From positions 128,001-192,000 of the forward strand of contig CAVXTP010000014.1 of assembly GCA_963764715.1 (NCBI GenBank): a stretch of DNA of 64,000 nt, in the 5' to 3' direction. Positions 1 through 46,236 of the stretch are shown here, piece by piece; the stretch's first letter is position 1, and each line of letters starts with the position of its first letter. A program made the position numbers and the translations under genes. The notes beneath the pieces are model-generated. The model worked only from the letters and a program-made list of their open reading frames with translations. It had not been told where the DNA came from and ran no database searches. Origin of the DNA: an uncultured Acidobacteriota bacterium (lineage in GTDB: Bacteria; Acidobacteriota; Thermoanaerobaculia; UBA5066; Gp7-AA6).

Positions 1-689
1 GCCGTCCCCTCGGCCGCGCGGGCGCGGCCGTAGGCGCGCGCGTCGCGGAAGGCTTTCTTCAGCTTCTCGAGGGCTTCGTCGCGGGCCTTCTCCTGGGCCT
101 TGACCGACCTGCTCGCGTCGGGCGACCGGTCGATCGCGAGGGAGGGCCACTCGACCGTGATCGCGGCCGGCGCCTTGAGCGTCGCGTCCTCGCGCGTCCA
201 GCCGTCGAGCTTCATCGCCGCGACGCTGCCGGAGACGATGCCGCCGCCGGGCGTGATCCCGGCGAGCAGCACGCCGCCCGAGCGGGCCACGGGCAGCAGC
301 TCCGAGTCGAGATTCATGGCCACGTCGGCCCGGGCCGCCGGGTTGATCTCGCCGAGCTCCTCGACGTCGAGCATGGAACGGACCGCCGAGATCTCCTCGA
401 GGCCCAGGACCGTCAGCGGCGGGAAGAGCGGCGGATAGACGTGCCGGCCGGCGCCGTCGACGACCGGGACGCCCGGTGGCGGAGCGGCGCCCGGCGCGAC
501 CGACGCGATCTTCCCGTCCCGGACGACGAGGGTGCCGTTGGGAACGTCGGGCCCCGAGACCGGGTGGATCGTCGCGCCGACGATCGCGAAGACGGCCGGC
601 GGCGGCGGCGCGGTCGGGGGAGCGGGGGTCTGCCCCGCGAGCCGCGCCGCCGACAGCGCGAGCAGGACGGCGAGGATCCGCGGCTTCAT
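1..689 (-). CDS. Secreted amidohydrolase family protein, 5' part (runs off the window start)
   Basis: ATG at 689 overlaps the upstream stop (ATGA) and has a GGAGG SD. Reads MKPRILAVLLALSAA...AIVGATIHPVSGP...GTLVVRDGKIASVG...HVYPPLF, the typical N-terminal beta-sandwich of amidohydrolases. Not in the ORF track because it is partial. Confidence 0.8.
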   Translation of the reverse strand, partial: MKPRILAVLLALSAARLAGQTPAPPTAPPPPAVFAIVGATIHPVSGPDVPNGTLVVRDGKIASVAPGAAPPPGVPVVDGAGRHVYPPLFPPLTVLGLEEISAVRSMLDVEELGEINPAARADVAMNLDSELLPVARSGGVLLAGITPGGGIVSGSVAAMKLDGWTREDATLKAPAAITVEWPSLAIDRSPDASRSVKAQEKARDEALEKLKKAFRDARAYGRARAAEGT

Positions 690-27273: not shown

Positions 27274-27343
27274 CCCTTCCCCGCCGCCCCTGGCCCGCGC
27301 GATTCGGCGGCGCGGCGCAAACCAACCGGGTTAGGATTGCGCC

Positions 27344-29292
<1,949 letters not shown>

Positions 29293-29296
<4 letters not shown>

Positions 29297-30426
29297 GCGG
29301 CCCGGCCCGGAACCGCCCGTTCCTGCGGTGGGCCGCCGCGGGCCTTTTCCTCGGCGCGCTCGCCCGGGCCGCTTCGGGGCAGACGGCGGCGGCGGGGACG
29401 GCGGATCCCGGCCGGGAGCTCGCGATCGGCGTCTTCGAGTCGCCGCCCTGGGCGATGAAGGACGCGAGCGGCCAGTGGCAGGGACTGACCGTCGACCTCT
29501 GGAAGGACCTGGCCACCGACCTCCAGTTTCGCTATCGATTCGTCGAGGCCGGGCCCGACGCCATTCTCGACCAGATCAGTCAGGGCACTTTGGATACCGC
29601 GGCCGCCCCGTACGCCGCGACGGTCGAGCGGGAACGGGAAGTGGACTTCAGCCACGCCTACGCCGCCGCGGGGATCGGCATCGCGATCCTGAGGGTGCGC
29701 GAGGAAGACCGGTGGCTCGGCGTCGTCGAAGCGCTCTCGACGCCGACCGCGATTCGGCTCTACACGGGCATCGTCGCGCTGGTGTTCCTGGCGGGCGCCG
29801 CGCTGTGGCTCCTCGAGCGCCGCCGCAACGCGATGTTCTCGGGTCGCGCCCTCCAGGGCATCGGGTCCGGGTTCTGGTGGGCCGGCGTGACGACGGTCGG
29901 CGTGGGATACGGCGACAAGGTCCCGATCACCTTCTGGGGCCGGCTCGTGGGGCTCTTCTGGATGTTCGTCAGCCTCATCCTGATCACTTCGTTCACCGCG
30001 TTCGTCACGACGAAGCTCGCGCTCTTCGACGTCGCCCGCATCCAGGGGCCCGGCGCGCTGCGGCATGCCGTCGTCGGGACCGTGGAGGGCTCGGCGTCCG
30101 TCGACCTGCTGCGGCGCGAGGAGCTGGCGCACCGCGTCTATCCCGACGTGCCGAGCGCCCTCCAGGCCCTCCTCGCGGGCGACGTCAAGGCCATCGTCTA
30201 CGGCTCGGTCGTACTGCGCTATTACGCCGACCGCGATCCGGGACGGCGGATCGAGGTCCTGCCCGGCCAGATCGAGGCGTTCAACTTCGCGTTTCCGCTG
30301 AAGGACGGCAGCCCGCTGCGCGAGCCCCTCAACGAGGCGCTCCGCCGCGTGCTGAACGAGTCGCACTGGAACGACCTGAAGGACCGTTACCTCGGCAAGG
30401 GCGCCGCCGGGGGCATCGGCCAGTGA
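29293..30426 (+). CDS. GluR0-like ligand-gated ion channel (PBP domain split by a 2TM pore)
   Basis: S1 ligand-binding lobe, TM1, pore [16 protein letters not shown]2 (GRLVGLFWM), then S2 lobe. GTGA-coupled to speA. Confidence 0.82.
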
Positions 30427-30812: not shown

Positions 30813-31168
30813 GCCGGCGACTCGATCGGCGTGACCGCCGCCTGGTCCTCTTCTCCCGTGCGGATCCGGTAGACCTTCTCGACGGGCAGGACGAAGATCT
30901 TCCCGTCGCCCACCGAGCCCGTGCGCGCGGCACCCACGATCGCCCGCACGGTCCGCTCGACGAAGTGGTCGGAGACGCCGATCTCCAGGCGCACTTTTTC
31001 GGCGAGCTCCATCTTGACGGTCGTTCCGCGATAGGTCTCGACCCTCTCGGTCTCGCCGCCGTGCCCCTCGACGCGGTGGAGCGTCAGGCCCCGCACCTGC
31101 GCCCGGAAGAGCCCCTCGAGAACGTCGGGCAGCTTCTCGGGACGGATGATGGCGACGACGAGCTTCAG
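30809..31168 (-). CDS. glnK: P-II nitrogen regulator (Thermus-like GlnK), probable CTG start
   Basis: [12 protein letters not shown]...YRG...[13 protein letters not shown]....RIRTGE. Lies directly after amtB, with GGAGG 6 nt before a CTG that overlaps the amtB TGA. Confidence 0.88.
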
Positions 31169-32445
31169 CCGGATCCTCCCTCGGCGGGAGCGGGGACGCC
31201 GAGCGCGGGGCCCGCCGTCTCGGGAAGGACCAGGATCGCACCTTCGCCGCGCGCGTAGGCCTCCTCGCCGTGCTGGGTCACGTCGAGGCCCATGCCCTCG
31301 TCGCGCACCCCGGCGCGCAGGGGCGCAAAGACCCCGATGAGCTTCAGGAGGCCGAAGGTCGCGAGGCCGCTGTAGGCCATCACCGCCAGCACCGAGACCG
31401 CCTGCACGGCGAGTTGACGCGGGTTGCCGAAGAGCAGGCCGTCGGCCGAGCCGTTCCAGGCCTTCTGCGCCAGCACGCCGGTCAGCAGCGCGCCCACCGT
31501 CCCGCCGAGGCCATGCGCCGCGACGACGTCGAGCGAATCGTCCAGCCGCGTCCTGGCGCGCCACAGGAGCGCGAAATAGCTCGGGAAGGCGCCGATCCCG
31601 CCGAGCAGGATCGCCGAGAGCGGGCCGACGTAGCCGGCCGCCGGTGTCACCGCCACGAGGCCCACGACGATCGCCGTCGCGGCGCCGACCGCCGTCGCTC
31701 GGCCGGTGCGCGCCAGGTCGAGCAGCGTCCAGACGACGAGCGTCGCCGTCGGAGCAAAGAGCGTGTTGACGAAGGCGAGCGTCGCGGGGCCGCCGACGCC
31801 GAGCGCGCTTCCCGCATTGAAGCCGAACCAGCCGAACCACAGCAGACCCGCCCCGAGCAGCGTGAACGGCACGTTGTGCGGCAGAATCGCCTGCCGCGCA
31901 TAGTCTTTGCGGGGCCCCAGCACGAATGCCGCGACGAGGGCGGCCGCGCCCGCGTTCACGTGGACGACCGTCCCGCCCGCGAAGTCGAGGGCGCCGAGCC
32001 GCCCGAGGAACCCGCCGCCCCAGACCCAGTGCGCGACGGGCGCGTAGACGAGAAGGCCCCAGAGCGTCAGGAACGCGAGATAGGGACCGAAGCGCATCCG
32101 CTCGACGATTGCGCCCGAGATCAGGGCCGCCGTGACGATCGCGAAGGTCCCCTGGAAGGCCATGAACAGCAGGTGCGGGATCGTTCCCTGGAGCTCGAGT
32201 CCGACGCCCGAGAGCAGGGCACGCGAGAGGCCCCCGGACCAGCCCGAGCCCGGGCCGAACGCGATCGAGTAGCCGAGAAGCGCCCAGGAGACGCCGACGA
32301 AACCGAGCGACACGACGCTCATCATCATCGTGTTGAGGGCGTTCTTCGAGCGCACGAGGCCCCCGTAGAAGAAGCCGAGGGCCGGGGTCATGAGGAGCAC
32401 GAGGGCCGTGGAGACGAGCAGCCAGGCGGTGTCGGCCTTGTCCAC
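31165..32445 (-). CDS. amtB: Ammonium transporter
   Basis: LMTPALGFFYGG, FQGTFA, DFAGGTVVH, LLWFGWFGFNAGS and DDSLDV...HG. Confidence 0.95.
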   Translation of the reverse strand: MDKADTAWLLVSTALVLLMTPALGFFYGGLVRSKNALNTMMMSVVSLGFVGVSWALLGYSIAFGPGSGWSGGLSRALLSGVGLELQGTIPHLLFMAFQGTFAIVTAALISGAIVERMRFGPYLAFLTLWGLLVYAPVAHWVWGGGFLGRLGALDFAGGTVVHVNAGAAALVAAFVLGPRKDYARQAILPHNVPFTLLGAGLLWFGWFGFNAGSALGVGGPATLAFVNTLFAPTATLVVWTLLDLARTGRATAVGAATAIVVGLVAVTPAAGYVGPLSAILLGGIGAFPSYFALLWRARTRLDDSLDVVAAHGLGGTVGALLTGVLAQKAWNGSADGLLFGNPRQLAVQAVSVLAVMAYSGLATFGLLKLIGVFAPLRAGVRDEGMGLDVTQHGEEAYARGEGAILVLPETAGPALGVPAPAEGGSG

Positions 32446-32588: not shown

Positions 32589-34553
32589 TCAGTCCTTCAG
32601 CAGGAACTCCTTCATGAAGAGGACGGACGCGTAGAACTGATAGTCGCGATTGGATTTCTTGGCGAACCCGTGGCCCTCGTCCTTCGCCATCAGGTACCAG
32701 ACGGGCGTGCCGACGCCCCGGATCTTCTGGACCATCTGGACCGACTCGGACATCGGCACGCGCGGGTCGTTGGCGCCCTGGATCACGAACAGGGGCTTGC
32801 GGATCTTCTCGGCGTTGTTCATCGGCGCGGTCTTCTCGAGGAACGCGCGCATCTTCGCGTCGCGCTCGTCGCCGTACTCGACGCGGCGCAGGTCCCGCCG
32901 GTAGCCCGAGGTGTTCTGGAGGAACGTCACGAAGTTCGAGGGCCCGACGACGTCGAGGGCGCACCGGATCCGGTCGCTGTACAGGTAGGCCACGGCGAGG
33001 GTCATGTGGCCGCCATAGCTGCCGCCTCCGACGAGCACCCGGCCGGCGTCGAGGTCCGGGCGCGCCGCGATCCAGTCGAAGAGCGCGCCGATGTCCTTGT
33101 AGGCGCCCTCGCGCAGGAAGCCGTTGTCCATCTGCAGGAAGGTCTTCCCGTAGCCCGAGGAGCCCCGGATGTTCGGCAGGATCAAGGCGACACCCAGCTC
33201 GTTGACGACGTAGTTCCAGATGCCGATGAAGTCGGGCCGCGACTGCCCCTCCGGGCCGCCGTGGATCTCGATCGTCACGGGACGTTTGCCCGGGAACTTT
33301 TTCGAGTCCGGCCGATAGAGGAACCCCGTGATGTCGCGGCCGTCGAAGCTCTTCCAGGACACGAGCTCCGGCTCGGCGAAGGTCTCGGGGTTGAGGCCTC
33401 CGAGCTCGCTGTACGTCCACCGCTCGACCTTCCCGGTCTTCAGGTCCCACGAGTAGGCGTCGGAGTTGGCACGCGCGGTCTCCATCGTGAATCCGATCGC
33501 GCCGCCGTCCCGGTGCCACTTCACGTTCCCGATGGTGCCGAGCGGAAGCTTCGGCCCCGGCAGCTCCCGGCGGCTCGCCGTGTCGAGCAACCGGAGAATC
33601 GAGACGCCCTTCTCGTTGGTCACGTAGGCCAGCCGGCTCCCATCGAGAGACAGGTCGAAGTCCTCGACGTCCGCCGTGTCCCCGGTCAGGAACTCCGTCT
33701 TCTTCGTGGCGAGGTCCATGTAAGCGAGCCGCTGGAACTCGGAGCCGGCGTCGACGGTGACGTAGAGCCCCTTCCCGTCCCGGGCGAAGGCCGCGTTTCC
33801 GTACGCCACCTTGTCCTTGCCCTTCGGCGTCAGCAGCGTCTTCGCGCCGGTCGCGAGGTCGGCGAGCCACAGGTAGGTCTCGTTGATCGAGATGGCCTCG
33901 GCGAGGAGGAGCTTCGAGTCGTCCGGCGACCAGTCGGCGACCTCCCATCCTCCGCCCGTAAGCTCGACGACGCGCCGGTCCGTCTTCGGGTCCCTCACCG
34001 CGACGACGTAGACGTCGACGTCGTTGCCGGTGCGACGCGTCGAGCCGTACGCGATGCGGTCGCCGCCGTTCGACCAGCGGGCGCCGGTGTTGCGCGACTT
34101 GCCGTCGGTCAGGAGCGTCACGCTCCCGTCGGCGAAGTCGTAGCGGTAGAACTGAAAGAACTCGCTGCCCCCGATGTCTTTCGAGAAGATGAAGGACTCG
34201 CCGGTCTTCGGGTCGAAGCGCGCGCCGCCGACGCGGTCCGGGTAGAAGGTCATCTGCGTGCGGGCCCCGCCGGGGAACTTGACGAGATGGGCCTGGGCGA
34301 CGTTTCCGAAACGGGTGGAGATCAACATCTCCCGGCGGGTCGGGTGCCAGCCGGTGAATCCGGCCGACCGGAACTCGGTGTAACGACCGACCTCCTCCGC
34401 GAGGGAGGCCGGGATCGGCGGGACGCCCTCGGCGACGAGGCTTTCCGGCATCGGCACGACCGCCGGGGCGGCGGATGCGGGCGGGGCCGTCTGGCCCAGG
34501 GCGAACGGCGAGACCAGCAGGGCGAGAAGGGCGAAACGAGCGCGAAGCGACAC
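32589..34553 (-). CDS. S9 family (prolyl oligopeptidase/acylaminoacyl peptidase) secreted peptidase
   Basis: Beta-propeller, then IHGGPE, GGSYGG (catalytic Ser), NDPRV and DEGHGF. Confidence 0.92.
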   Translation of the reverse strand: MSLRARFALLALLVSPFALGQTAPPASAAPAVVPMPESLVAEGVPPIPASLAEEVGRYTEFRSAGFTGWHPTRREMLISTRFGNVAQAHLVKFPGGARTQMTFYPDRVGGARFDPKTGESFIFSKDIGGSEFFQFYRYDFADGSVTLLTDGKSRNTGARWSNGGDRIAYGSTRRTGNDVDVYVVAVRDPKTDRRVVELTGGGWEVADWSPDDSKLLLAEAISINETYLWLADLATGAKTLLTPKGKDKVAYGNAAFARDGKGLYVTVDAGSEFQRLAYMDLATKKTEFLTGDTADVEDFDLSLDGSRLAYVTNEKGVSILRLLDTASRRELPGPKLPLGTIGNVKWHRDGGAIGFTMETARANSDAYSWDLKTGKVERWTYSELGGLNPETFAEPELVSWKSFDGRDITGFLYRPDSKKFPGKRPVTIEIHGGPEGQSRPDFIGIWNYVVNELGVALILPNIRGSSGYGKTFLQMDNGFLREGAYKDIGALFDWIAARPDLDAGRVLVGGGSYGGHMTLAVAYLYSDRIRCALDVVGPSNFVTFLQNTSGYRRDLRRVEYGDERDAKMRAFLEKTAPMNNAEKIRKPLFVIQGANDPRVPMSESVQMVQKIRGVGTPVWYLMAKDEGHGFAKKSNRDYQFYASVLFMKEFLLKD

Positions 34554-34596
34554 GGCGGTCCCCCTTTCCGAAACGAAACGCGTTCTTCTGGACCTC

Positions 34597-34622
34597 TACG
34601 CCGGGCGACCCCCGAAAGTTCC
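34597..34622 (-). promoter_or_regulatory. Putative ECF sigma promoter
   Basis: GGAACT-N16-CGTA upstream of the S9 peptidase. Confidence 0.5.
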
Positions 34623-34639
34623 GGGACCGCCGGGACGGC

Positions 34640-35704
34640 TCACGGCGCGGCCGGGGTCGGGGACCAGTCCCCGAACGGCACCAGCGTCGGCCCCACCACG
34701 TGACAGTCGTCGAGGTCGCCCCCGTCATGGTAGGCGCCGGTCCGGTACCAGAGCACCAGGTCCGTCGCCAGCCCCTCCGGAGGGTTGAGGTAGTTGTTGA
34801 ACTTGATCGCGCAGGCCGGCCCCGACTGGCCCGAATCGTCGATCTCGTTCGCGTTGTACTTGAGGACCCACACGTCGCCGACCGAGAACGAGTCGGCCGG
34901 CAGCGCCGTCTCCGCGCCGGGCACCAGCCGATAGCCCCGCCGGGTCGTCGAGTCCGCGACCGACCAGACGATCCCGGGCTTGTTGGTCCGGCGCAGCGCC
35001 TCGGTCGGAAGGTTGATCGTCGGGTATCGCGGGCCGGGCCGGCCGTCCTCGGACGGATTCGGCCCCTCGGTCACGACGTCCCCGCCCGGGCCGTCGATGT
35101 CGAAGTCGAAGCGCCAGTAGGCGTGGTGCAGGTGCGTGAAGGCGATGCAGGAGTCGGCGACCGCCGCGAAGCCCATCGTGGGTTCGATCCTCCCGTCGAG
35201 GTGGAACTTCCACTTCATGATGTAGCGGTACCACCCGGCCTCGGCCTGCGTCGTCAGGATGAGCACGTCGGGGAGCTTCTCGGCGGCGACGCCCGTGAAG
35301 CTGCCGATGTCGCCCCCCGAGCCGCCGACGTCGCACACCGTCAGCGGCGGCACGGTCGGCTCGGAGTAGCCCGGCGAGATGACGTTGTCGGACTGGAAGC
35401 GGGTCTCCTGGTACATCCAGTCGCGGAAGCAGCCGCAGCCGCCCGGCAGGTACAGGACGTTCAGGATCGGAATGTGGGCCCGCTTCAGGACGAGGTGGCC
35501 GTTGTAGTAGACGTTGCGCAGCTCGAGGCCCGAGCCGCGGGTGCCGCTGCTGTCCGCCGGACGGAGCCAGCAGAACTGCCACACCGGATTCGCGTCCGGC
35601 CAGGACATCAGGTGCTCGGTTCCGGAGCAGGCGGGCTGCGCCTCGACCGGCCGGGCCGCGAGCGCGAGCCCGAGGAGGACGAGCGGGGCGAGGCGGCGGA
35701 GCAT
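34640..35704 (-). CDS. Secreted copper amine oxidase D4-like protein, copy 2
   Basis: Signal peptide MLRRLAPL. AGWYRY...W.FH.DGRI, HLHHAYWRFDFDIDG and DLVLWYRTGAYH. Eight Cys. Confidence 0.72.
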   Translation of the reverse strand: MLRRLAPLVLLGLALAARPVEAQPACSGTEHLMSWPDANPVWQFCWLRPADSSGTRGSGLELRNVYYNGHLVLKRAHIPILNVLYLPGGCGCFRDWMYQETRFQSDNVISPGYSEPTVPPLTVCDVGGSGGDIGSFTGVAAEKLPDVLILTTQAEAGWYRYIMKWKFHLDGRIEPTMGFAAVADSCIAFTHLHHAYWRFDFDIDGPGGDVVTEGPNPSEDGRPGPRYPTINLPTEALRRTNKPGIVWSVADSTTRRGYRLVPGAETALPADSFSVGDVWVLKYNANEIDDSGQSGPACAIKFNNYLNPPEGLATDLVLWYRTGAYHDGGDLDDCHVVGPTLVPFGDWSPTPAAP

Positions 35705-35706
35705 CG

Positions 35707-36261
35707 TCACGGATGCGCCCCCGTCGGGACGTACACGGGGTACGCGATCTCGCGCTTGACGAGGTCGACGACGGTCCAGCGCACCAGTCCCTCCCGGTCC
35801 GGAGACAGGAGCTGGATCTGGAGGCACCGGCTGCCCGGCCCGCAACGCCGGCCGCGGCCCTCTTCGAGGATGAACCCCCCCTCGAGGACCGCGTTCTTGC
35901 GCGCGACGATGCGGCCGAGCTCCGCGTCGCGCCGCACGAGGTCGCCGGCCTCGGCGATCTCCTCCGGGGAGGGGCTCGGCTGGCTCTGCTTGATGTCGCG
36001 CGTGCCGTAGATCCGCGCGTCGGCGCCGGAGGAGTAGCGCTCCTGCGCGAAGCCCCTCGTATAGTCGAACACGAGCTCCACGTGGCGAATGTAGTCGCGG
36101 CCGTTGGGCGCCTTGACCGTCTCGTCCCAGCTCCGGAGCAGCCGCACCGGACGGGACGTCGCGGTCACCCCGCCGCTCTCGGCCTGGGCCGAGGCCGCCG
36201 CGAGCGCCCCGACGACCGCCAGCAACCGAGCCGCAACGTCCCGCCGCAGGGCCACCTTCAT
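35707..36261 (-). CDS. Secreted partner protein (amine oxidase D3-like), copy 2
   Basis: Signal peptide. QPSPSPEEIAEAGDLVRRD.EL, CGPGSRCL and VVDLVK. Paralog of 37417-37947. Confidence 0.65.
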   Translation of the reverse strand: MKVALRRDVAARLLAVVGALAAASAQAESGGVTATSRPVRLLRSWDETVKAPNGRDYIRHVELVFDYTRGFAQERYSSGADARIYGTRDIKQSQPSPSPEEIAEAGDLVRRDAELGRIVARKNAVLEGGFILEEGRGRRCGPGSRCLQIQLLSPDREGLVRWTVVDLVKREIAYPVYVPTGAHP

Positions 36262-36337
36262 TGTCGTGATTCCCGAAATCCTAGCAGACCCCGCCGGCCC
36301 CCGGCGACCGGCGGGATCCGGGGCCGCGGCCGCCCCG

Positions 36338-37420
36338 CTACCAGGTGCCGATCGGCTCGAAGGTCGGACCGACCGTGTGGCAGTCGTCGAGGTCCCCTCC
36401 CAGGTGGAGGGCGCCCGTGCGGTACCAGAGCACGGTGTCGAGGGCGAGCGACTCGCCGTTGAGATAACCGCTGAGCTTGACCGCGCACGCCGGACCGGGC
36501 TGTCCGGCGTCGTCCAGCTCCTGCGCCTTGTACTTCAGCAGCCACACGTCCCCGACGCTGAAGTTGTCCGCGGGCAGCTCCGCTTCCGTTCCGGGGACGA
36601 GCCGGTAACCGCGGCCCGTCCGGGAGTCGACGATCGACCACCACAGCGCGGGATCGTCGTTGAGCCGCATCGCCTCGGTGTCGATGACGCCCTTGCCGAC
36701 GCCCTCCGGGCCCTCGGTGACGACGTCCTCATCCGGACCGTCGATGTCGAAGTCGAGGCGCCAGTACGCGTTGTGGCGGTGCGTGTTGGCGACGCATGCG
36801 TTCGCGACCGCCGAGTAACCCATGGTCGGCTGGATGCGGCCGTCGAGGAAGAAGGTCCACTTCATCTCGTAGCGATACCAGCCCGCCATGGCCTGGGTCG
36901 TCAGGATCAGCCGGTCCGCGAGCTTCTCGGCCGCCACCCCCTGGAAGCAGACCCGGTTGCAGGGGTCCACGTCCGTCGCGGGACAGACGTCGACGCCGAG
37001 GTGCTGCTCGCAGACCGTGATCGGAGGACAGGCGGGCTCGGCGTATCCGCAGCCGGCGGTCAAGGGCGGCGGACAGGGGTTGTCGACCAGAAAGGGCTGC
37101 TCGGTGTAGAGCCAGTCGCGGTAGCAGTGGTTCGCCCCGCCGCAGCTTCCGACGTCGTACTGGACGTTGAGGATCGGCACGTGACCGCGCTTGAGCACGA
37201 GGTGGCCCTTGTAGTAGACCTCCCGAATCTCGATCCCGGAGCCGTTGGTGGCGCTCGACTGGGCCGGCCGGACCCAGCAGAAGTCCCACACCGGGTCCGC
37301 CGTCGGCCAGGCCATCCAGTGCTCGTTCGGACCGACGCAGCGCGCCCTCGCGACGGCGGCGGACGCGGGCTCCGCGGCCGCCGCGAGAACGAGAGCGAGC
37401 AGCAGAAGGCGGGCCTTCAC
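36338..37420 (-). CDS. Secreted copper amine oxidase D4-like protein, copy 1
   Basis: Signal peptide. AGWYRY, HRHNAYWRLDFDIDG and VLWYRTGALH. Fourteen Cys. Confidence 0.72.
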   Translation of the reverse strand: MKARLLLLALVLAAAAEPASAAVARARCVGPNEHWMAWPTADPVWDFCWVRPAQSSATNGSGIEIREVYYKGHLVLKRGHVPILNVQYDVGSCGGANHCYRDWLYTEQPFLVDNPCPPPLTAGCGYAEPACPPITVCEQHLGVDVCPATDVDPCNRVCFQGVAAEKLADRLILTTQAMAGWYRYEMKWTFFLDGRIQPTMGYSAVANACVANTHRHNAYWRLDFDIDGPDEDVVTEGPEGVGKGVIDTEAMRLNDDPALWWSIVDSRTGRGYRLVPGTEAELPADNFSVGDVWLLKYKAQELDDAGQPGPACAVKLSGYLNGESLALDTVLWYRTGALHLGGDLDDCHTVGPTFEPIGTW

Positions 37421-37947
37421 TTGACACCCGGGTGCTGGGACGGGACGAAGTTCCGATACGTGACCTTCTGCTTGACCAGGTCGACGCCCGTCACGCGGAT
37501 CAGGCCCGAATGGTCGGGCGACAGCACCTGGATGAGCAGGCAGCGGGATCCCGGTCCGCAGGGCTTGAGCCGCCCTTCCTCGATGATGAAGCCTCCCTCG
37601 AGCTCGGCCTTGTACCGCCGGATGATCCGCGCGAGCTCCGGATCCTCGCGCACGATCTCGAAGGCCTCTTCGATCTCCGCTTGCGAGGGCGTCGGAGGAT
37701 TGACGACGATGCGGCGGGCCGAGATCAGTTTGCCGTCCAGCGTATAGGTGCGCTCGAAGGCGGACGCCCGCTGGTAGTCGTAGAGGATGTCGACCCGGCG
37801 CGGGAAGTCCCCCTGCGACGTCTTGACCGAGTCGTACCAGGTTCTCAGCAGGCGCAGGGGCCGCGAGGTCAGCGAGGGCTGGGTTTGAGCGGCAGCCGCG
37901 GCGACCAGGCCGAGAAGGAGGGCGAGAATCGGAATCGCGCGGCGCAT
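37417..37947 (-). CDS. Secreted partner protein (amine oxidase D3-like), copy 1
   Basis: GAGG SD and MRRAIPIL signal peptide. PPTPSQAEIEEAFEIVRED.EL, CGPGSRCL and VDLVK. Confidence 0.65.
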   Translation of the reverse strand: MRRAIPILALLLGLVAAAAAQTQPSLTSRPLRLLRTWYDSVKTSQGDFPRRVDILYDYQRASAFERTYTLDGKLISARRIVVNPPTPSQAEIEEAFEIVREDPELARIIRRYKAELEGGFIIEEGRLKPCGPGSRCLLIQVLSPDHSGLIRVTGVDLVKQKVTYRNFVPSQHPGVK

Positions 37948-37981
37948 GGGGACCTCACCTTGTACTGCCCCGACAGGAGCC

Positions 37982-38010
37982 ATCCTATGGGCCGGTCCCG
38001 CCCGAGTCAA
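37982..38010 (-). promoter_or_regulatory. Sigma70 promoter of the four-gene amine-oxidase-like cluster
   Basis: TTGACT-N17-TAGGAT. Confidence 0.65.
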
Positions 38011-38035
38011 CCGCCATTGCGGCGACCACGCGTGC

Positions 38036-39682
38036 TCACGGGTGGGGCGAGGCGTCGACCGGCTTCGCGGGCGGGGCGTCGGCCTTCTTCGGCTCCGGCT
38101 TCGGCGGTTCGTCTTTCGGCATCGGCTTGCGCGGGAACATCCCGTCGCGCATGGCCGCGTTGTAGGCGAACGAGGCCATGATGACCGAGGCCTGCATCAG
38201 GTCGTTCTTCTGGAGCCGCTCGTAGACGTCCATGTTCGTGTGATGGGTCCGCGTCTCGTACTCGAGCGCGTCCTGGACGAACTGGAAGCCCGGGAGGCCG
38301 ACGTCGTCGAAGGACTGGTGGTCCGTTCCGCCCGTCCGGTTCATCGTCACGAGGGTCGCGCCGAGGTCGTGGAAAGGCGCGAGCCAGGCCTCGAAGATCG
38401 GAACGGCCGCGGCGTTGTCCTCGGAGTAGATGCCGCGGATCTTGCCGGTCCCGTTGTCGAAGTTGAAGTAGGCCGACAGCTTCGCGTGCTCGGGCTTGAC
38501 CGTGAGGGGCCCGGTCTTCTTGCGGAGATAGAACGGCTTTTCCTTCTCCTCGGCCGACGGCTCCGGCCGTGACGCGAAGTGCTGCGAGACGTAGGCCCGC
38601 GAGCCGAAGAGGCCCTGCTCCTCGCCGCTCCAGAGCCCGATGCGGATCGTCCGCCGCGGTTTCGCCCCGACGGCCTTGAGGATGCGCATCGCTTCCATCG
38701 CCACGACCGAGCCCGCGCCGTTGTCGGTCGCGCCGGTCCCGCCGTGCCAGGAATCGAGGTGGGCGCCGATCATCACGACCTCGTCCTTCCGGTCGGTTCC
38801 GGGGATCTCGGCGATCGTGTTCCACTGCATCTGGTCTTCTTCGATGAACCGGGCCTTGACGTCGAGCTCGACCTCGACGGGAACGTCCCGGTCGAGAAGC
38901 CGCGACACCCGGCCGAAGCTTTCGGGCTCCATCGAGAGCGAGGGCAGGCCCTGGGGGGCCCCCTTCTTCCAGGTTCCCTCGCCCTGGACGCTGAAGGTCC
39001 CCATGTCGCCGCGGCCCGACGCGACGATCGCCAGCGCCTTCTCCTCCTCGAGGAACTTCGTGACGGCCTTGCGGAGCTCGCGACGCTTGACGTACTCCGC
39101 CCGGTTGTAACGCGGCGGTCGTCCCGGCATCTCGTACTGATACTCGGCCTCGAGCGACTTCTCGTCGTAGCGCACGGAGTCGGGCTTCTCGCCGAGCGGG
39201 ATGTCGCGCACGTCGCCGAAGAAGACGACCGTTCCCGCGAACTTCCCCTTGAGCTTCTCGAGCTCGTCGGCCGACTTGACGTTGAGCCGCGCCGCCTTCG
39301 CGCGGACGGGCCCCGCCGTCCCCGGCGTCCAGGCCTCCGGGATCGCGATGAGCTCGGCCGAGCCCGGCGCCGTCATCCGCACCGCGCAGCCCGACCAGGT
39401 CCAGCCGCGGCCGAACGGACCCCAGCTCTCGAGGTGGGCGTTGGCGAGCCCCCAGGACTCGAGCTGCTTCTTCGTCCACTCGTTGGCTTCCTTCATCTCG
39501 GGAGAGCCGGTCAGGCGCGGCCCGATGCGGTCCATCATCTCGGAGGCCGACTCCATGACCTTGGAGTTGTTGAAGCCCTCGAGGCGGATCCGCGTGATCA
39601 TGTCGAGGTCCACCGCCTCGGTCGCGGGAAGGGTGGAACCGGCGAGCACTACGAGGCCGACGGCGGCGATCAAGCGTTTCAG
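38036..39682 (-). CDS. Secreted M28 peptidase (carboxypeptidase Q-like), probable CTG start
   Basis: GPRLTGS, GAHLDSW, GATDNGAG, GEEQGL, GGTDH and HHTNMD. AGGAGG lies 6 nt before CTG-AAA-CGC-TTG, which begins a clean signal peptide. Confidence 0.88.
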   Translation of the reverse strand: MKRLIAAVGLVVLAGSTLPATEAVDLDMITRIRLEGFNNSKVMESASEMMDRIGPRLTGSPEMKEANEWTKKQLESWGLANAHLESWGPFGRGWTWSGCAVRMTAPGSAELIAIPEAWTPGTAGPVRAKAARLNVKSADELEKLKGKFAGTVVFFGDVRDIPLGEKPDSVRYDEKSLEAEYQYEMPGRPPRYNRAEYVKRRELRKAVTKFLEEEKALAIVASGRGDMGTFSVQGEGTWKKGAPQGLPSLSMEPESFGRVSRLLDRDVPVEVELDVKARFIEEDQMQWNTIAEIPGTDRKDEVVMIGAHLDSWHGGTGATDNGAGSVVAMEAMRILKAVGAKPRRTIRIGLWSGEEQGLFGSRAYVSQHFASRPEPSAEEKEKPFYLRKKTGPLTVKPEHAKLSAYFNFDNGTGKIRGIYSEDNAAAVPIFEAWLAPFHDLGATLVTMNRTGGTDHQSFDDVGLPGFQFVQDALEYETRTHHTNMDVYERLQKNDLMQASVIMASFAYNAAMRDGMFPRKPMPKDEPPKPEPKKADAPPAKPVDASPHP

Positions 39683-39840
39683 AGCACACCTCCTGAACAA
39701 AACCGCGGCACGGTACCACCCGCCATCCCCGGGGTCAAACCGCGGCGGGGCCTCGTGTGGGCGCGACACGATCGCGAGCAGGGCGAACCGAAGAAGGGCG
39801 TCCGGTCCGACCAATCCCGGGGTGGACAAAAACCACGTGC

Positions 39841-39933: not shown

Positions 39934-42610
39934 ATGAGCAACCGCCTGAGAGTCGTCTTCGTTCTGGCCCTGATCGCCGGTGCCGTCGGCGCCCCGACCG
40001 CGGCGGCCGAACAACCCGCCTGGGTCTTCAGCGGTCCGACCGACGTCGGCACGATCTACGACTTGAAGGCGGCCGACGGGATCACCTGGGCGGGGACTTC
40101 GGCGGGGGTCTTTCGGTCGACGCCGTCCGGCGACGGATGGGAGCTCGCGGGCCTGCGCGCGGAGTGGGTTTCGGCGATCGCGGTGCGTCCCGGCTCGCCG
40201 GTCTTCGCCCTCTTCGGCCAGGGCGGCCTCGCCGTCAGCCGGGATGCCGGGAACTCGTGGGAGACGCTCGCTCCCAGCGGCTCCAATCTGTCGGCCGTGG
40301 CCATCGATCCGGACGACCCTTCGACGGCGTATCTCGGGAGCTTCGACGGGATCCTGTGGAAGTCGACCGATTCCGGCGCAACCTGGAAGCGGCTGGGCTC
40401 GACAGGTTTCTACTACCTCACGGCCGTCGACCTCGATCCCCACGACGGCGCGATCGTCGTCCTGGGCTACAGCCAGTCGAGCGGCAACGCCGCCCTTCAG
40501 CGCAGCACGGATGGCGGTGCGTCCTTCCAACCGGTCGCGATCGTCGGACACGCCGCCCCCCAGTGGAACGCGATCGCACCCGGCGCTCCCGGCTCCGGCC
40601 GGTTCTACGCGTCGATGACCGGTTTCGTCTGCGTGACCACCGACGGCGCCGTCGACTGGTCGTGCGCGCCCGTCACCCCGGTCGTGACGCGCATCGCCGA
40701 GGTCCCGGACACCGACCCGACGTCGACGCCCGTCGTCGTCGCTGACCTCGGATCACGGCGTGCTCGTCAGCAGCGACGGCGGAGATTCGTGGACGCAGGC
40801 TGGAGGGTCGCTGGCCACGGGCTACATGCTCGCCGCGGCGTTCGACTCCGAATCCGGCGCCGTCCTCGCCGGCACCGACGCGGGCATCTATCGCAGCGCC
40901 GACCGGGGAGCGACCTGGAACTGGCACGGCCATGGCCTCCGGTCGTCCTGGGTCACGACGGTGGCCGTCGATCCGTCCCACCCGGAGAACGTCGTCGCAA
41001 GCACCTTCGGGTTCTCGGTCAACCAGGGTCCGGGCCTCTTCCGTTCGAGCGACGCGGGGCACTTCTTCGACCCCTTCAGTGAGCCACCCCCCTCCGGCTT
41101 CACCTCGCTGGTCTTCGATCCGAACGACCCGTCGAGGCTCTATGGCACGGCGAACGGAACGTTCTATCGATCCGCGGACGCCGGAGCATCCTGGTCCGCG
41201 CTGACTCCGGTCAATTTCGGATTCGGCCGGCTTTCGGTCGACGCCCGATCGCCGGGACGGGTCTGGGCCGCCGAGAATTCGGGGCTCGTCTTCAGCCGCG
41301 ACGGCGGCGCGACCTTCCAGCGGGCCGCCGTGTCGCAGACCATCTACGATCTCGTCTTCGACAGTCACGACCCGACGACGCTCTACGCCAGCTCGTATCA
41401 CGACCTCGAGACCGGTTATTACGGCTACTCGTACCCCCGCGGGGGCTCGATTTTCGTCAGCCGGGACCTCGGCAACACGTGGACACGCAACGAGCAGGAC
41501 CTCGGCGCCCTGCCCCTGGTCCTCGCCGCCGACCCGTTCGCGGGCGCAGTCGTCTATGCCGGCACCTCGGGTCACGGGGTCATGCGCAGCAGCGACGCAG
41601 GCTCGACCTGGAAAATGTCGTCGGGCCCCGTTTCCCCGACCGTGGTGAGCGGGCTCGTGGCGGATCCGTCCCGGCCCGGCTACCTTTACGCGGCCGCGGA
41701 CGGGACGGTCTATCGCAGCCGGGATGGCGGCGCGAGCTGGGAGCACTTCGGAGAGGGAATCGACGGCCCGCCCGTGGGAAGCGTCGCGGTCGCCGGCGGG
41801 GGCCGGACCCTCCTGGCGGCTTCGACGGGAGCCGGGATCTACCAGATGGATCTGGGGACGAGCAGCCCGTCGTTCCCGTGCGTCGCGGGCCCCGAGCGTC
41901 TCTGCCTGATCGGGGGCCGATACGCCCTGGACGTCGCCGTCCAGAGCCGCGCTCTGTGGACCACGGGGGCGGCGCACGCCGTCACCGACCGGTCCGGGTA
42001 CTTCGCGTTCCCGAGAGTCACGGGCGACGCGACCTTCCCGGAGGTCGTCGTCAAGATGCTGCCCGCCGGCGCCCTCGGCCCGGGCGGCGCCGCGATCTTT
42101 CATTCCGGCCTCACGTCGCTTCCCTACGTCCTCACCCTCACGGACACGGTCACCGGCGAGCAGCACCAGTACGTCGGCAACCAGGGGGGCTCGCAGTGCG
42201 GCGGAGTGAGTCAGCCCTTCCCCGACGCGAGCGCCGCGGTCAGCCGGCCCGAAGCCACCGCCGCGCCCTCCGAGGCCGCGCTGTCGCTTCTCGATCACCG
42301 GTTCTCGGTGACCGTCCATGCCCGCCATCCGCGCACGGGGCGCGAGTCGAACGGCTTCGCGGTTTCCGGAAGCGACCGGTGGGGGTACTTCAGCATGCCG
42401 GACATCACGGGCGACGCGGCGTTGCCGGAAATCGTCGTCAAGATGGTCGACTTCAGCCAGATCAGCGGGAAGTTCTGGGTCTTCTACACGGGGCTGACCG
42501 GCTTCGACTACACCCTGACCGTCACCGACACGAAGACCGGGACCGTCCGGACCTACGAAAGCACCGACGCCTTCTGCGGCGCCTCCGACACGTCGGCGTT
42601 TCCCGAGTGA
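39934..42610 (+). pseudogene. Secreted BNR-repeat protein with two C-terminal acidobacterial-type domains, frameshifted near 40741
   Basis: The 39934 ORF degrades after ...VVV. The +1 frame continues LTSDHGVLVSSDGG into ORF 40760-42610. Either a true pseudogene or a sequencing error. Confidence 0.75.
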
Positions 42611-42672: not shown

Positions 42673-43908
42673 GTGAGCCACAGGAAAACGATCTCCCGAA
42701 GCGCCGCCGCGGCGGCGCTTTTCGCCTTCTCGCTCGCCGGCGCCCTGCGCGCCGACGAGCCCGGGTTCGTCCTCCAGGGCGAGGGCGGGCTCGTCACCGC
42801 CCTCGTGCTCGACCCGATCTCGACGGCCACGCTCTACGCGACGACCGGGCGCGGCCTCTACCAGTCGCGCGACGCGGGTGCGAGCTGGAGGTCGCGCGGG
42901 CGCGGCCTCGACGCGCATTCGGTCCTGGCCCTCGCGATCGACCCGTCCGCGCACGACACCCTCTATGCCGCGACGGATACGGGCGGCGTCTTCCGCAGCA
43001 CCGACGCCGGCGAGTCCTGGCGCCGTTCGAACGAGAGCCTCGAGCTGCGGTACGTCGGGACGATCGCCGTCGATCCGCACCGGCCGGGCTCGGTCTACGC
43101 GGGCGGCGAAGGCGGCCGTGTCTTTCGCAGCCTCGACTCCGGGGAGTCGTGGAGCGAGCTCGGGGCGACGACGGCGCGCGTCGCCGTGACGGCGATCGCC
43201 TTCGATCCCGCCACGGCCGGGACCATCTACATCGGGACCAACAGCGAGGGCTTCTTCAAGAGCACGGACGGCGGCGCGACGTGGCTGCGCCCCTTCAAGG
43301 CCATGAGCAAGGGAACGATCTGGAACCTGACGGTCGATCCGTCCGCGCCGAGGACGCTGTACGCCGGCATGCACGACGGCCTCTACCGCAGCGACGACTT
43401 CGGAACGACCTGGCGGCCCCTCCACAAGCGCCTCAAGAGCTACAACGTGCTCGCGCTCGCGATCGACCCCGCCAACTCGAAGACGCTCTACGCCGCGACG
43501 GCGATCGGAATCTACAAGTCCTCGGACGGCGGGGACTCGTGGATCCTCCTCAACCAGGACCTCTACGTGACGGCGATCGCGCTCGATCCGCGCGCGCCCG
43601 CGGTGCTGTACGCGGGCACCCAGCTCGGCGTCCTCAAGAGCGGTGACGCGGGGACGAAGTGGGCGCCGCTGAGGCTCACGGGCGAGCCGCCGGCGGCCCC
43701 CGTCCCCGGAGGCGCCACCGCGTCGGCTCCGGGCTCCGCCTCGACGCTCCCCCGCTTGCCCGTCGCCCGGCGGCCCGCCGCCCCGGGGCCGGCCGCGCCC
43801 GGCGCCTCTTCCAATCCCGGCACGCCGGCGCAGGACGGGCTCCGCGTCCTCCCGGTCAGGCCCCGCCCCACGCCGGCCGCGCAGCGGGTCGTCGTCGGCG
43901 ACGAATAG
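42673..43908 (+). CDS. Secreted BNR/Asp-box repeat protein with Pro/Ala-rich tail
   Basis: Signal peptide and seven regular LAIDP...LYA...G..xSxDxGxxW blades. Confidence 0.85.
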   Translation: MSHRKTISRSAAAAALFAFSLAGALRADEPGFVLQGEGGLVTALVLDPISTATLYATTGRGLYQSRDAGASWRSRGRGLDAHSVLALAIDPSAHDTLYAATDTGGVFRSTDAGESWRRSNESLELRYVGTIAVDPHRPGSVYAGGEGGRVFRSLDSGESWSELGATTARVAVTAIAFDPATAGTIYIGTNSEGFFKSTDGGATWLRPFKAMSKGTIWNLTVDPSAPRTLYAGMHDGLYRSDDFGTTWRPLHKRLKSYNVLALAIDPANSKTLYAATAIGIYKSSDGGDSWILLNQDLYVTAIALDPRAPAVLYAGTQLGVLKSGDAGTKWAPLRLTGEPPAAPVPGGATASAPGSASTLPRLPVARRPAAPGPAAPGASSNPGTPAQDGLRVLPVRPRPTPAAQRVVVGDE

Positions 43909-43933: not shown

Positions 43934-44911
43934 CTACTCCGCCGCGAACAGCGTCACGGCGAACCGGGCGTCGGACTCGACCCACTGCTGGAGCAGGCGG
44001 AAACCCGCGTCGGCGCCCATGCGGACGACCTCTTCGGCGTCGTACTTGTAGGAGCTCTCCGTCCAGATGGGCTCCCCGCGCGCGAACGCCACGGTCGTTC
44101 CCGCCCTCGGGATCACCACCGTCTGGTCGGCCAGGGAGACGAGGTGCATCTCGACGCGCCGCTCCACGGGATTCCAGACGGCGCGGTGGGCGAACGCGGA
44201 GAGGTCGAAGTCGGCGAGGAGCTCCGTGTTCATGCGCGCCAGCAGGTTCTTGTTGAACGCCGCCGTGACGCCGAGCGGATCGTCGTAGGCGAGAAGCAGC
44301 TCGCTCTCGGGCTTGACGAGGTCCGCGCCGAGCAGGAGCGCGTCGCCCGGCCGCAGGGACCTCCGGATGTCCGCCAGGAACTCGTCGGCGGCGGGGCGAT
44401 CGAAGTTGCCGATGTTCGACCCGAGGAAGATCGCGAGCATCGTGCCGTGCGACGGGCGCTGCTCGGCCGCGTGGCGCAGGCCCTCCTCGTACGTCGCCCG
44501 GTGGCCGACGACCGAGACGTGCTCGAGCGCGCCGAGGGTGCGTTCGGAGAGCTCGAGGGCGTCGGGCGAAATGTCGATCAGGTGGACGAGAACGCGCTTG
44601 CGCCGGCTGCGGAGGTTCTCGGCGAGCATCGCGAGCTTCTCGCCGCTGCCGCAGCCGAGCTCGACGAACGTGATGGGGTCCTCGAGCGCGCTGACCATTT
44701 CTCCCGAGAACCGCGCGAGCAGCCGTCCCTCGGCCCGCGTGATCCGGTACCACGGAAGGCGGCAGATGGCCTCGAAGAGGGCCGAGCCCAGCCCGTTGTA
44801 GAGGTAGCGGGACTGGATCTGCTTCGGCACGAGCGCGAGGTCGCGCCGCACGTCGTCGGCGAAGTCGCGGACCGCCTCGGCGGGCGGCGCCTGGGCGCTC
44901 AGGGGGATCAC
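43934..44911 (-). CDS. egtD: L-histidine N-alpha-methyltransferase
   Basis: K...RYLY...GS.LFE.IC.LP.Y, ELGCGS..K, FLGSNIGNF, AYDDPLGVTAAFN.N and TESSYKY. GTGA-coupled to egtB. Confidence 0.92.
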   Translation of the reverse strand: MIPLSAQAPPAEAVRDFADDVRRDLALVPKQIQSRYLYNGLGSALFEAICRLPWYRITRAEGRLLARFSGEMVSALEDPITFVELGCGSGEKLAMLAENLRSRRKRVLVHLIDISPDALELSERTLGALEHVSVVGHRATYEEGLRHAAEQRPSHGTMLAIFLGSNIGNFDRPAADEFLADIRRSLRPGDALLLGADLVKPESELLLAYDDPLGVTAAFNKNLLARMNTELLADFDLSAFAHRAVWNPVERRVEMHLVSLADQTVVIPRAGTTVAFARGEPIWTESSYKYDAEEVVRMGADAGFRLLQQWVESDARFAVTLFAAE

Positions 44912-46236
44912 GGCGCGACCGTCCGGAACTTGGCGTACACGTAGGGATAGTTGGGCCGGAACCAGTTGCGGAAGCTCCGCCGCACGAGCTCCTTCGGGGT
45001 CGCGGGCGAGGCGCCCTTCAGGACGTAGTGCTTTCCGTCGAAGAAGTCCGCGGAGTACCGCGGGTACGAAGGCATCGGCTCGAAGCCGGGAAGCGGCGCG
45101 AAGACCGTCGACGTCCACTCCCAGCCGTTGCCGACGAGGTCGCGGACGCCCCACGCGCTGGTCCCGCGAGGAAAGGACGCCACCGGCACGGGGTCCGCGC
45201 CGGCGACGTCGAAGTGGCCGCGCGTCGCATCGGGCGGCGCATCGCCCCAGGGCTGCGGGCGCTCGCCGCCGCCCGGTTCGCCGTAGGCCGCGCGGTGATA
45301 CTCGGCTTCCGTCGGCAGGCGCCGGCCCTTCCAGCGCGCCCAGGCGGACGCCTCGGCGTGGGAGACCCAGGCCGGCCAGGCCATCGGCAGCGGCACGAGG
45401 TCCCACATCCCCCGCCACATCCAGGCGCCGCGGTGGAGCTCCCAGAAGAGCGGGCTCCGGACGTCGTGCGCGAGGCGCCAGGACCGGCCCTCCTCGTCCC
45501 AGAGCGCTTCGTCCTCGTAGCCGCCGGCCTCGACGAACTCCATGAAGTCGCGGTTCGTGACGCTGTCGACGTCGATGTCGAAGGCGGGGACCTCGGCTTC
45601 GATTCGTGGAAACTCGTTGTCCCAACCGAAGGCCATCTCGCCACGATTCGCGCCGAGCGTCGCCCGTCCCGCGTCGACCCGGACGCTCCGCCGGGGCGGC
45701 GGCTCGCTCCCCGGCCGGGGCGCGGGAAGCCCGGCCGGACGGATTTTCTGGCCGTAGGGCAGGCGATGGAGGATGTAGGACAGCGTCTCGTGGTGCATGG
45801 GGTCGTGCTCGAGCACCGTGTACGCGGCGAGGCCTCCGGCGAGAACCGGACGGCTCTCGTCCGCGATGTCGGCCTCGGCGATCGCCTCGAGCACCTTGCG
45901 GTCCGCGGCGGCGGCGAAGCTGCGGATCGCGATCCGGGAAGGCCACGAACGGGCCGTGCCGGGGACCGCCTTCTCGTCCTCCGGGTCGATCCCGCGCTCG
46001 AACAGGACCTCCAGATCCTCGTCGACCCCGGGCTGCCCCAGCCCGCGCTTGACCAGGGTGTTCACGGCGAAGGCCGGGAGGTGGCCCTCGTAGAAGCAGA
46101 TCGGATTGCGGAGGGGAATCGGCCGGGACTCGTAGGCCTCGGGACGGACCGCGTCGAAGATCGCGTCCGCACGCTCGCGGTTGCGGACGTACCAGGCGGC
46201 GAGAGCGGCTCGATCGAGGTCCAGGGCCGTCGGCAT
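44908..46236 (-). CDS. egtB: Ergothioneine sulfoxide synthase (DinB-like plus FGE domain)
   Basis: Candidate Fe triad GH...H.PMH, FGWDNE, RLPTEAE, GNGWEWT, YSADFFD and RSFRNWF. Adjacent to egtD. Confidence 0.85.
   Translation of the reverse strand: MPTALDLDRAALAAWYVRNRERADAIFDAVRPEAYESRPIPLRNPICFYEGHLPAFAVNTLVKRGLGQPGVDEDLEVLFERGIDPEDEKAVPGTARSWPSRIAIRSFAAAADRKVLEAIAEADIADESRPVLAGGLAAYTVLEHDPMHHETLSYILHRLPYGQKIRPAGLPAPRPGSEPPPRRSVRVDAGRATLGANRGEMAFGWDNEFPRIEAEVPAFDIDVDSVTNRDFMEFVEAGGYEDEALWDEEGRSWRLAHDVRSPLFWELHRGAWMWRGMWDLVPLPMAWPAWVSHAEASAWARWKGRRLPTEAEYHRAAYGEPGGGERPQPWGDAPPDATRGHFDVAGADPVPVASFPRGTSAWGVRDLVGNGWEWTSTVFAPLPGFEPMPSYPRYSADFFDGKHYVLKGASPATPKELVRRSFRNWFRPNYPYVYAKFRTVAP

Follow-up and report, generated by a model that had tools for sequence, protein, structure and literature searches.

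Copper amine oxidases (CAOs) carry topaquinone (TPQ) at a conserved Asn-Tyr-Asp/Glu site, which serves as the model for a protein quinone cofactor that the enzyme makes by itself. As far as the available part of PMC3382800 goes, the structurally characterised CAOs are all homodimers of single-chain, 70-80 kDa subunits with such a site, and the Asn in front of the TPQ tyrosine is called strictly conserved. A 2025 phylogeny of these enzymes deals, in its accessible part, with plants and animals only (PMC12058724). Here we analyse a locus in a 64,000-nt stretch of DNA from an uncultured Acidobacteriota bacterium (contig CAVXTP010000014.1, positions 128,001 to 192,000; hereafter the window, to whose positions all coordinates refer). 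Four genes lie on its minus strand between 34640 and 37947, in the order small-large-small-large: S1, L1, S2 and L2. The large products belong to a family, called here W-Y-R-Y after its hallmark motif, that has retained the copper site and the tyrosine and replaced both flanking residues. On balance we find it probable, with considerable reserve, that each small-large pair encodes a copper quinoenzyme of two exported chains, which would deaminate primary amines.

Two small-large gene pairs in tandem

S1 (37947-37417) encodes 176 aa with a signal-like N-terminus, EGGF at residue 117 and CGPGSRC at residue 130, and its stop codon is joined by a GTGA overlap to the GTG start of L1 (37420-36338), whose 360-aa product contains a CAO D4-like domain. 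The in-frame TAG flagged in L1 is simply its own stop codon (36340-36338). A G+C-rich spacer of 76 bp (36262-36337), in which no terminator-like site was seen on the minus strand, separates this pair from S2 (36261-35707; 184 aa) and L2 (35704-34640; 354 aa, again with a CAO D4-like domain). The gap between S2 and L2 is 2 nt, or a GTGA overlap instead if an in-frame GTG at 35710 is the start of L2. The two pairs are clearly paralogous: L1 and L2 share 59% identity over 348 columns (E 1e-140), and S1 and S2 51% over 152 columns (E 5e-50). Within 34300-38300 a single promoter-like site was seen, a sigma-70-like one on the minus strand (TTGACT, 17 nt, TAGGAT; 38010-37982), a consensus match lying in the 88-bp gap between the upstream M28 peptidase gene and S1, for which a shuffled region gives an expectation of 0.1. 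No terminator-like site was seen on the gene strand in the same interval. The gene order and coordinates of the original prediction, which placed all four genes behind one sigma70 promoter, were thereby confirmed, with a single consensus-match site ahead of S1.

As judged by eye, all four translations open with basic residues, followed by a hydrophobic run and a cleavage-like site of small residues, in agreement with the signal peptides that had been proposed for each of them. They contain 14 (L1), 8 (L2) and 2 (S1 and S2 each) Cys residues, and CGPGSRC, said earlier to be common to the small proteins, is found in S1 and S2 alike. The landmarks that had been listed for the large proteins (RDW, WYRY, HxH and a distal His) were all verified by translation. 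In L2 these are Y85, R94-D95-W96 (35425-35417), W158-Y159-R160-Y161 (35233-35222), H191-L-H193 (35134-35126) and H326 (34729-34727); in L1 they are Y88, R101-D102-W103, W181-Y182-R183-Y184 (36880-36869), H214-R-H216 and H339.

The two large proteins also differ from each other. L1 has insertions rich in Cys (CGGANHC, together with a Cys-rich stretch and additional Cys before the TPQ strand) and is missing a Pro/Gly-rich loop of L2. Both types, L1-like and L2-like, recur in other genomes, and these paralogues may differ in substrate or stability.

The large proteins are members of the CAO superfamily

Both large proteins pass the Pfam PF01179 cut-off of 27 bits (32.9 for L1 and 40.2 for L2), and this domain is carried, in precomputed annotation, by all 120 listed large-protein homologues. 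The NCBIfam model for TynA-type primary-amine oxidase, NF008559, gave 22.9 and 25.2 bits, far from its cut-off of 651. A search of the Protein Data Bank (PDB) with the single L2 sequence reached only E 0.088 at best, and for this reason a family profile, an alignment of 30 family members, was used. It retrieved 32 sequences at E <= 0.01, all of them CAO-family chains, with Arthrobacter globiformis phenylethylamine oxidase (AGAO) at the top (E 1.3e-10). As a side observation, among 14 control genomes those of Deinococcus radiodurans and Sulfolobus acidocaldarius also have PF01179 matches above the cut-off.

L2 was folded as representative of the large proteins, and S2 of the small ones. The AlphaFold2 model of L2 (mean predicted local distance difference test, pLDDT, 88.0; predicted template modelling score, pTM, 0.87) gave 121 Foldseek matches in the PDB at E <= 0.001; those listed were all CAOs, the top one with E 4.9e-14. 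VIA-align superposed the model on AGAO 1AVK with Z 26.8 and an rmsd (root-mean-square deviation) of 3.6 over 286 aligned residues. These results bear out the match to the CAO D4 domain that had been claimed for the large proteins.

Three alignment methods agreed on the mapping of the active site. G-W-Y159-R-Y of L2 aligns with G-N-Y466(TPQ)-D-Y of the Escherichia coli CAO and G-N-Y382(TPQ)-D-Y of AGAO; H191-x-H193 aligns with H524/H526 and H431/H433, and H326 with H689 and H592, respectively. Similarly, hhalign matched the large chain with TynA at 95% probability over large-chain residues 150-331. The HxH pair and third ligand suggested earlier thus fall on the copper ligands of AGAO and TynA, and H191, H193 and H326 would bind copper; by homology alone, the three His would converge on Tyr159.

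Y85 and R94-D95-W96 lie upstream of the TPQ strand, in the order expected for the Tyr that hydrogen-bonds O4 and for the catalytic base. In the complex model described below, large-chain residues 93-94 and 156-157 contact one and the same small-chain residue, which places the D95 strand next to the Y159 strand, and D95 is likely the catalytic base. By sequence threshold, fold and metal-site residues, the large proteins are members of the CAO superfamily.

The small protein has a fold resembling CAO domains D2 and D3

The model of S2 (pLDDT 88.4) found AGAO as best Foldseek match (E 1.2e-5) among 28 matches at E <= 0.001. With VIA-align, the first 30 matches were all CAOs, and 154 residues could be aligned, spanning 28..288 in AGAO and 112..373 in the E. 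coli CAO (Z 7.9, rmsd 3.8). The predicted fold consists of a four-strand sheet ahead of a D3-like helix-sheet unit. It matches CAO D2/D3, in line with the D3 likeness first suggested for the small proteins, and its coverage is wider than D3 alone (AGAO 28..288). A language-model search returned weak, low-ranked leads (0.80-0.85) to clusters with N2/N3 domains, and Pfam N2/N3 found no match in the relatives in which small and large parts are fused. Among 25 small-protein homologues, invariant residues include W45, P95, P97, G128-G129-F130 and the C140-G-P-x-x-R-C146 hairpin (S2 numbering). As modelled, the small protein appears to have a fold like that of CAO domains D2/D3, and it would be the N-terminal part that the large protein lacks.

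Small and large proteins are probable partners

We surveyed 78 related loci from species-representative genomes; they were the best of the 547 relatives confirmed out of 600 pattern matches. A small gene lies on the same strand with the large gene in 53 loci, directly upstream in the paired cases. The other 25 loci contain 26 large domains, each inside a longer reading frame and starting at residue 216-416. The N-terminal parts of these fused frames matched the small-protein profile with an hhalign probability of 96.9% (E 1.9e-10, 110 columns), and one single fused protein did so with 92.7%. The gene-pairing survey proposed earlier thus supports pairing in 53 of the 78 loci and not a universal split, since 62 of 148 family representatives are fused. 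Some loci hold longer arrays: at least four large and three small genes in L004 and L015, and three pairs in L033. One locus, L074, is fragmentary.

Co-occurrence was also seen in 121 genomes sampled from the class, a tally that includes the source genome and, among the positives, an unpublished one (G004). The large gene was present in 11 genomes and the small gene in 10, all 10 within the 11 and adjacent to it; the eleventh large-gene genome has a weak partial match (E 3.8e-17). In trees of 31 pairs, nine type-1 large proteins, L1 among them, form one clade (support 100/99), and their nine small partners, with S1 inside, form a matching clade (99/99). The small-large pair was therefore duplicated as a unit before these genomes diverged. 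The mirrored trees indicate joint inheritance and not co-evolution, because kin share their history.

The interaction model called for in the original prediction was obtained for L2 22-354 with S2 34-184, and it predicts binding, with an ipSAE of 0.90 compared with 0.01 for the best of three controls. The runs had at least 87% of contacts in common and a partner pLDDT of at least 89. Of 80 solved complexes in the calibration of the tool, 58 reached the mark, as did 2 of 110 mismatched pairs, a rough guide here as our own alignments were supplied. The predicted interface involves W45, 88-97 and 127-131 of the small chain and 51-57, 87-96 and 156-158 of the large chain. Within it, F130 of the small chain would contact large-chain residues 93, 94 (R94), 156 and 157 (G157). 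The available part of PMC3382800 describes position 156 of the yeast enzyme HPAO-1 as a D3-derived 'bulky hydrophobic' channel residue and, to judge from the aligned ranges, F130 may stand roughly in its place. Inherited together, fused together in other loci and modelled together, the small and large proteins are probably partners.

Conservation and variation of the W-Y-R-Y family

An exhaustive search of 50%-identity representatives gave 669 clusters at E <= 0.001, of which 223 were at E <= 1e-30. At 90% clustering, 1020 large-protein relatives at E <= 0.001 were found among 8000 scored candidates, together with 207 small-protein relatives at the same threshold. Conservation was analysed in 148 representatives (P0241-P0388) at <=50% identity, taken from 150 listed of the 669 clusters. 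In the 120 close homologues, Y85, R94, D95, Y159, R160, Y161, H191, H193 and H326 are all unchanged. The 148 representatives keep W158 (145), Y159 (145), R160 (133) and Y161 (147) nearly throughout, as well as H191 (134), H193 (146), H326 (112, with 13 gaps), RDW (134), D95 (139) and Y85 (140). GWYRY occurs in 115 of them and xWYRY in most relatives. W-Y-R-Y is, from these alignments, the family hallmark. The six putative catalytic residues are kept together in 105 of the 148, as they are in L1 and L2, and the conservation peak coincides with the active-site motifs.

Two sub-branches depart from this pattern at the metal site. In 11 of the 148 representatives Asp stands in place of His326, so that the set reads His-His-Asp, and most of these have lost Arg160 too; 11 others have Arg for His191 and lack His326 as well. 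These sub-branches may bind another metal or none.

Two Cys residues stand near the putative catalytic positions: C90 (35437-35435) is five residues ahead of D95 and C186 (35149-35147) five ahead of H191. Of the 148 representatives, 125 retain C90 and 129 retain C186. The two signal-less fused proteins that were read contain both of them and lack most other Cys. The two residues may be joined in a structural disulfide or serve at the active site.

The architecture varies across the same set: 66 large proteins are standalone, 62 are fused, with an N-terminal extension of >150 residues and a length of about 520-600 aa, and the remainder are intermediate (12) or truncated (8). At their C-termini some relatives have TSP3, fn3, Laminin_G or Ig-like domains, or T9SS sorting domains. 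We also considered whether the split tracks export. A crude score of hydrophobicity makes 48 of 61 standalone representatives look exported, versus 38 of 61 fused ones; fused chains look exported too, and the idea was rejected.

Named records among the 78 loci come from Acidobacteriota (Thermoanaerobaculia, Holophagae, Occallatibacter), Myxococcales, Rhodothermales, Bacteroidota (Flavobacterium enshiense), Actinomycetota, Anaerolineales (Chloroflexota) and Bacillota (Neobacillus, Brevibacillus, Lederbergia, Psychrobacillus). No canonical CAO was found in the source genome, where only the two large copies match. RefSeq names these proteins 'hypothetical protein' and UniRef 'Copper amine oxidase catalytic domain-containing protein', so their CAO relationship is already visible to automatic annotation. 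Our literature search, which did not extend to supplementary files, found no paper on the W-Y-R-Y family, and this widespread bacterial family appears unstudied.

Genomic neighbourhood

On the minus strand, the upstream neighbour of S1 encodes an M28 family peptidase (38036-39829; PF04389, E 8.3e-33; start codon uncertain). An S9 prolyl-oligopeptidase-family peptidase with a signal-like N-terminus (32589-34553, minus strand; PF00326, E 6.7e-33) is encoded 86 bp after L2, and an Amt ammonium transporter comes next (31165-32445, minus strand; PF00909, E 2e-114). Among the 78 loci, an M28 gene adjoins the cluster in 21, an S9 gene lies directly downstream in 20, and Amt is found at the same position in 10.

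Among the neighbours of the distant loci are transporters (amino-acid, AbgT and SSF) and peptidases (S15 and S8). The only enzyme that recurs in these lineages is a glyoxal/galactose-oxidase-like protein (GO-like_E_set, Kelch, Glyoxal_oxid_N), encoded directly downstream of a fused CAO-like gene, on the same strand, at four loci from two phyla: L060, L068 and L069 (Solirubrobacteraceae) and L070 (F. enshiense). That this copper radical oxidase acts on the aldehyde product, in a path from amine through aldehyde to acid, is only a lead.

Other genes of the window were noted in passing. On the plus strand, 27337-30426 encodes a 1029-aa protein with SBP_bac_3, Lig_chan and Ion_trans_2 domains, which resembles prokaryotic glutamate-receptor-type channels; such a gene adjoins the cluster in 17 of the 78 loci, all close relatives. 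Two plus-strand open reading frames with BNR/Sortilin-Vps10 repeats (39934-41082 and 40760-42610) overlap by about 320 bp in different frames and represent either one frameshifted gene or two genes; a third such protein is encoded at 42673-43908. The minus-strand gene 43934-45946 encodes 670 aa, of which the C-terminal half is an EgtD-type histidine-specific methyltransferase (PF10017, E 2.8e-85) and the N-terminal 360 aa gave no Pfam match at E <= 1e-4. No RNA dataset sharing the 3.3-kb stretch of the four genes was listed, and the best DNA datasets share at most 0.18 of its words.

Discussion

The model that we favour would treat the large chain as a trimmed D4 beta-sandwich, with H191/H193/H326 as copper site, Y159 at the TPQ position, Y85 and Arg-Asp-Trp, and the small chain as the D2/D3-like cap that otherwise lies within the same CAO polypeptide. 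The invariant Gly-Gly-Phe loop of the cap would rest on the D95 and Y159 strands and line the substrate channel. Both chains would be exported and form their disulfides before assembly; copper and O2 would then turn Tyr159 into a TPQ-type quinone, and a primary amine would be oxidised to an aldehyde, with ammonium and H2O2. In the source lineage the enzyme would work with the flanking peptidases and feed the Amt transporter, and scavenging of nitrogen from extracellular peptides or amines is the most likely context for it. What the data show is the anatomy of the genes, their homology, fold and conservation, the co-occurrence and fusion of small and large parts, the mirrored trees and a predicted interface; that the chains are exported, bind copper and form a quinone, as well as the reaction and the physiological role, we infer.

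Several observations weigh against this model. The consensus around the TPQ tyrosine is W-Y-R-Y here, compared with N-Y-D/E in canonical CAOs. In yeast HPAO-1, according to the available part of PMC3382800, Asn404Ala forms only 5-10% TPQ, and Glu406Gln slows TPQ biogenesis tenfold. As Asn is replaced by Trp and Asp/Glu by Arg, and as these mutants are impaired, TPQ formation is not to be assumed. At the putative catalytic base, the confident profile alignments begin only after D95; a forced, low-confidence hhalign extension put Y85 on E. coli Y369 and D95 three residues off D383, with a TynA-homologue profile that is shallow for the placement of the Asp (120 listed homologues, all >=79% identical). 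Of the candidate catalytic Asp proposed earlier, the invariance in close homologues stands, and a confident alignment onto the CAO base does not.

The case for the small protein is subject to similar reservations. The VIA-align Z of 7.9 is within the range, below 8, that can reflect a common arrangement. The small proteins matched no Pfam family, N2 and N3 (PF02727, PF02728) included, and their profile reached a non-significant hhalign probability of 6.6% with TynA. The complex model may have passed partly by recall of the intrachain D3-D4 packing of solved CAOs, and the arrays of L004, L015 and L016 open with a large gene that directly follows the M28 gene and has no small gene of its own. 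The M28-(S-L)n-S9 order, with Amt, is restricted to close relatives (L001-L022 and L074) and for that reason reflects shared ancestry more than independent evidence. The 98 nearest neighbour proteins of 56 distant loci are heterogeneous, with no Pfam family in more than 5 of the 98; their reading frames were chosen by a filter on length and third-position G+C content (GC3), and some are possibly mis-called.

The most serious alternative keeps the same fold, assembly and copper site, and leaves Y159 unmodified, or supplies a cofactor other than TPQ (e.g. a cross-linked quinone), or assigns a substrate other than a simple primary amine, with the conserved R94, R160 and R198 holding, for instance, an anionic amine or an amino acid. 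We consider it unlikely, and still deserving of attention. The residues that tune TPQ biogenesis and orientation, Asn and Asp/Glu, are replaced by Trp in 145 and Arg in 133 of the 148 representatives (their roles being taken from the available part of PMC3382800). Extra invariant residues with no CAO counterpart (W96, W165, R198, C90 and C186) surround the site; its alteration in sub-branches indicates chemical plasticity, and amino-acid and peptide transporters adjoin in other phyla. Set against these points, the Tyr, the three His, the second Tyr and the invariant Asp are all kept, and only the two flanking residues differ. Moreover, yeast mutants of the flanking positions still form some TPQ, in the account available in part from PMC3382800, and no result indicates a specific alternative cofactor or substrate. 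The WYRY family may make TPQ with different helpers or make another cofactor, or its arginines may bind an anionic substrate.

A more elaborate version of these ideas would see the family as a separate ancient quinone-copper branch with a detachable D2/D3-like channel subunit. Its Trp/Arg and Cys/Trp residues would direct a non-TPQ cofactor or a specificity for anionic amines, for instance peptidase-released amino acids, and the tandem arrays of soil Acidobacteriota would deaminate extracellularly and so feed Amt. We put this forward as a speculation that is, as a whole, doubtful.

The small protein, rather than being a stable subunit, might be a dedicated maturation factor, an export escort or an inhibitor of the large protein. 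At the sequence level it matches no CAO domain, and some arrays (L004, L015) hold one more large than small gene, with at least four large and three small ones. This explanation is nevertheless improbable: the small part is fused to the large one in all 25 loci without a separate small gene and in 62 of the 148 representatives, its fold is that of permanent CAO domains, and its invariant loop is predicted to lie on the active-site strands. Finally, non-catalytic CAO-fold proteins, e.g. copper-binding or structural envelope proteins, are suggested by the loss of two of the three His in 11 of the 148 relatives and by the adhesion-type C-terminal domains (TSP3, fn3, Laminin_G, T9SS sorting) of some, and are very improbable given that all six putative catalytic residues are present in both window copies and 105 of 148 representatives and that conservation is maximal exactly at the active-site motifs.

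Returning to the two-chain copper quinoenzyme that we favour, an altered cofactor site in a natural two-chain form would surprise quinoprotein specialists. In about half of the family branches the enzyme is divided into two chains, both presumably exported. The family is relevant to the tolerance of TPQ biogenesis to Trp and Arg flanks, to a possible new cofactor and to the role of a detachable cap. Fused forms in cultured strains of Brevibacillus, Neobacillus, Lederbergia, Psychrobacillus and Flavobacterium make its biochemistry practical. If the link with peptidases and ammonium transporter holds true, the family may also release nitrogen outside the cell in soils, by a route that has gone unrecognised.

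Comparison with known systems

Lysyl oxidase and LOXL2 resemble the proposed enzyme in combining copper with a tyrosine-derived quinone for extracellular amine deamination, and are not homologous to CAOs according to the available part of PMC3382800. No LOX-fold structure appeared in the fold and profile searches; the 'lysyl oxidase' matches are Pichia PPLO, which is a CAO.

The canonical TPQ amine oxidases (EC 1.4.3.21/22) form homodimers that two beta-hairpin arms hold together. Two of their defining features are lacking here. The consensus of PMC3382800 and PMC12058724, as given in the available parts of both, is replaced by G-W-Y-R-Y in L1 and L2 alike, and the single-chain D2-D3-D4 architecture of 600-750 aa is absent. 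For these two reasons the proteins were not filed as primary-amine oxidase.

The fused relatives of F. enshiense (WP_023574926.1) and Brevibacillus dissolubilis (WP_176560131.1) share W-Y-R-Y, R-D-W and HxH with the split form, and their N-terminal 200 aa are homologous to the small protein. They differ in being one chain, in having no signal peptide and in the absence of most Cys pairs of the split form.

With TynA, the periplasmic CAO of E. coli (PDB 1OAC, 1DYU, 1D6U), the common points are the export, which is presumed here, and the aligned TPQ and His positions. TynA, however, has 757 aa with D1-D4 in one chain, compared with two chains here, and the N2/N3 Pfam domains annotated on its homologues are undetected in the small proteins.

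AGAO (PDB 1AVK, 1AV4, 3X3X) is the best structural and profile match of the large chain, which shares with it the D4 beta-sandwich, a Tyr at the position of TPQ382 and His at those of 431, 433 and 592, and the small chain can be superposed on its residues 28..288. AGAO consists of one chain of about 620-640 aa, whereas here the D2/D3-like and D4 parts are separate genes whose products have signal-like N-termini of their own. The large chain, with about 333 mature residues, has about 20% identity to AGAO and at least 8 extra Cys, and where AGAO has N381-Y-D383 the large proteins have W-Y-R.

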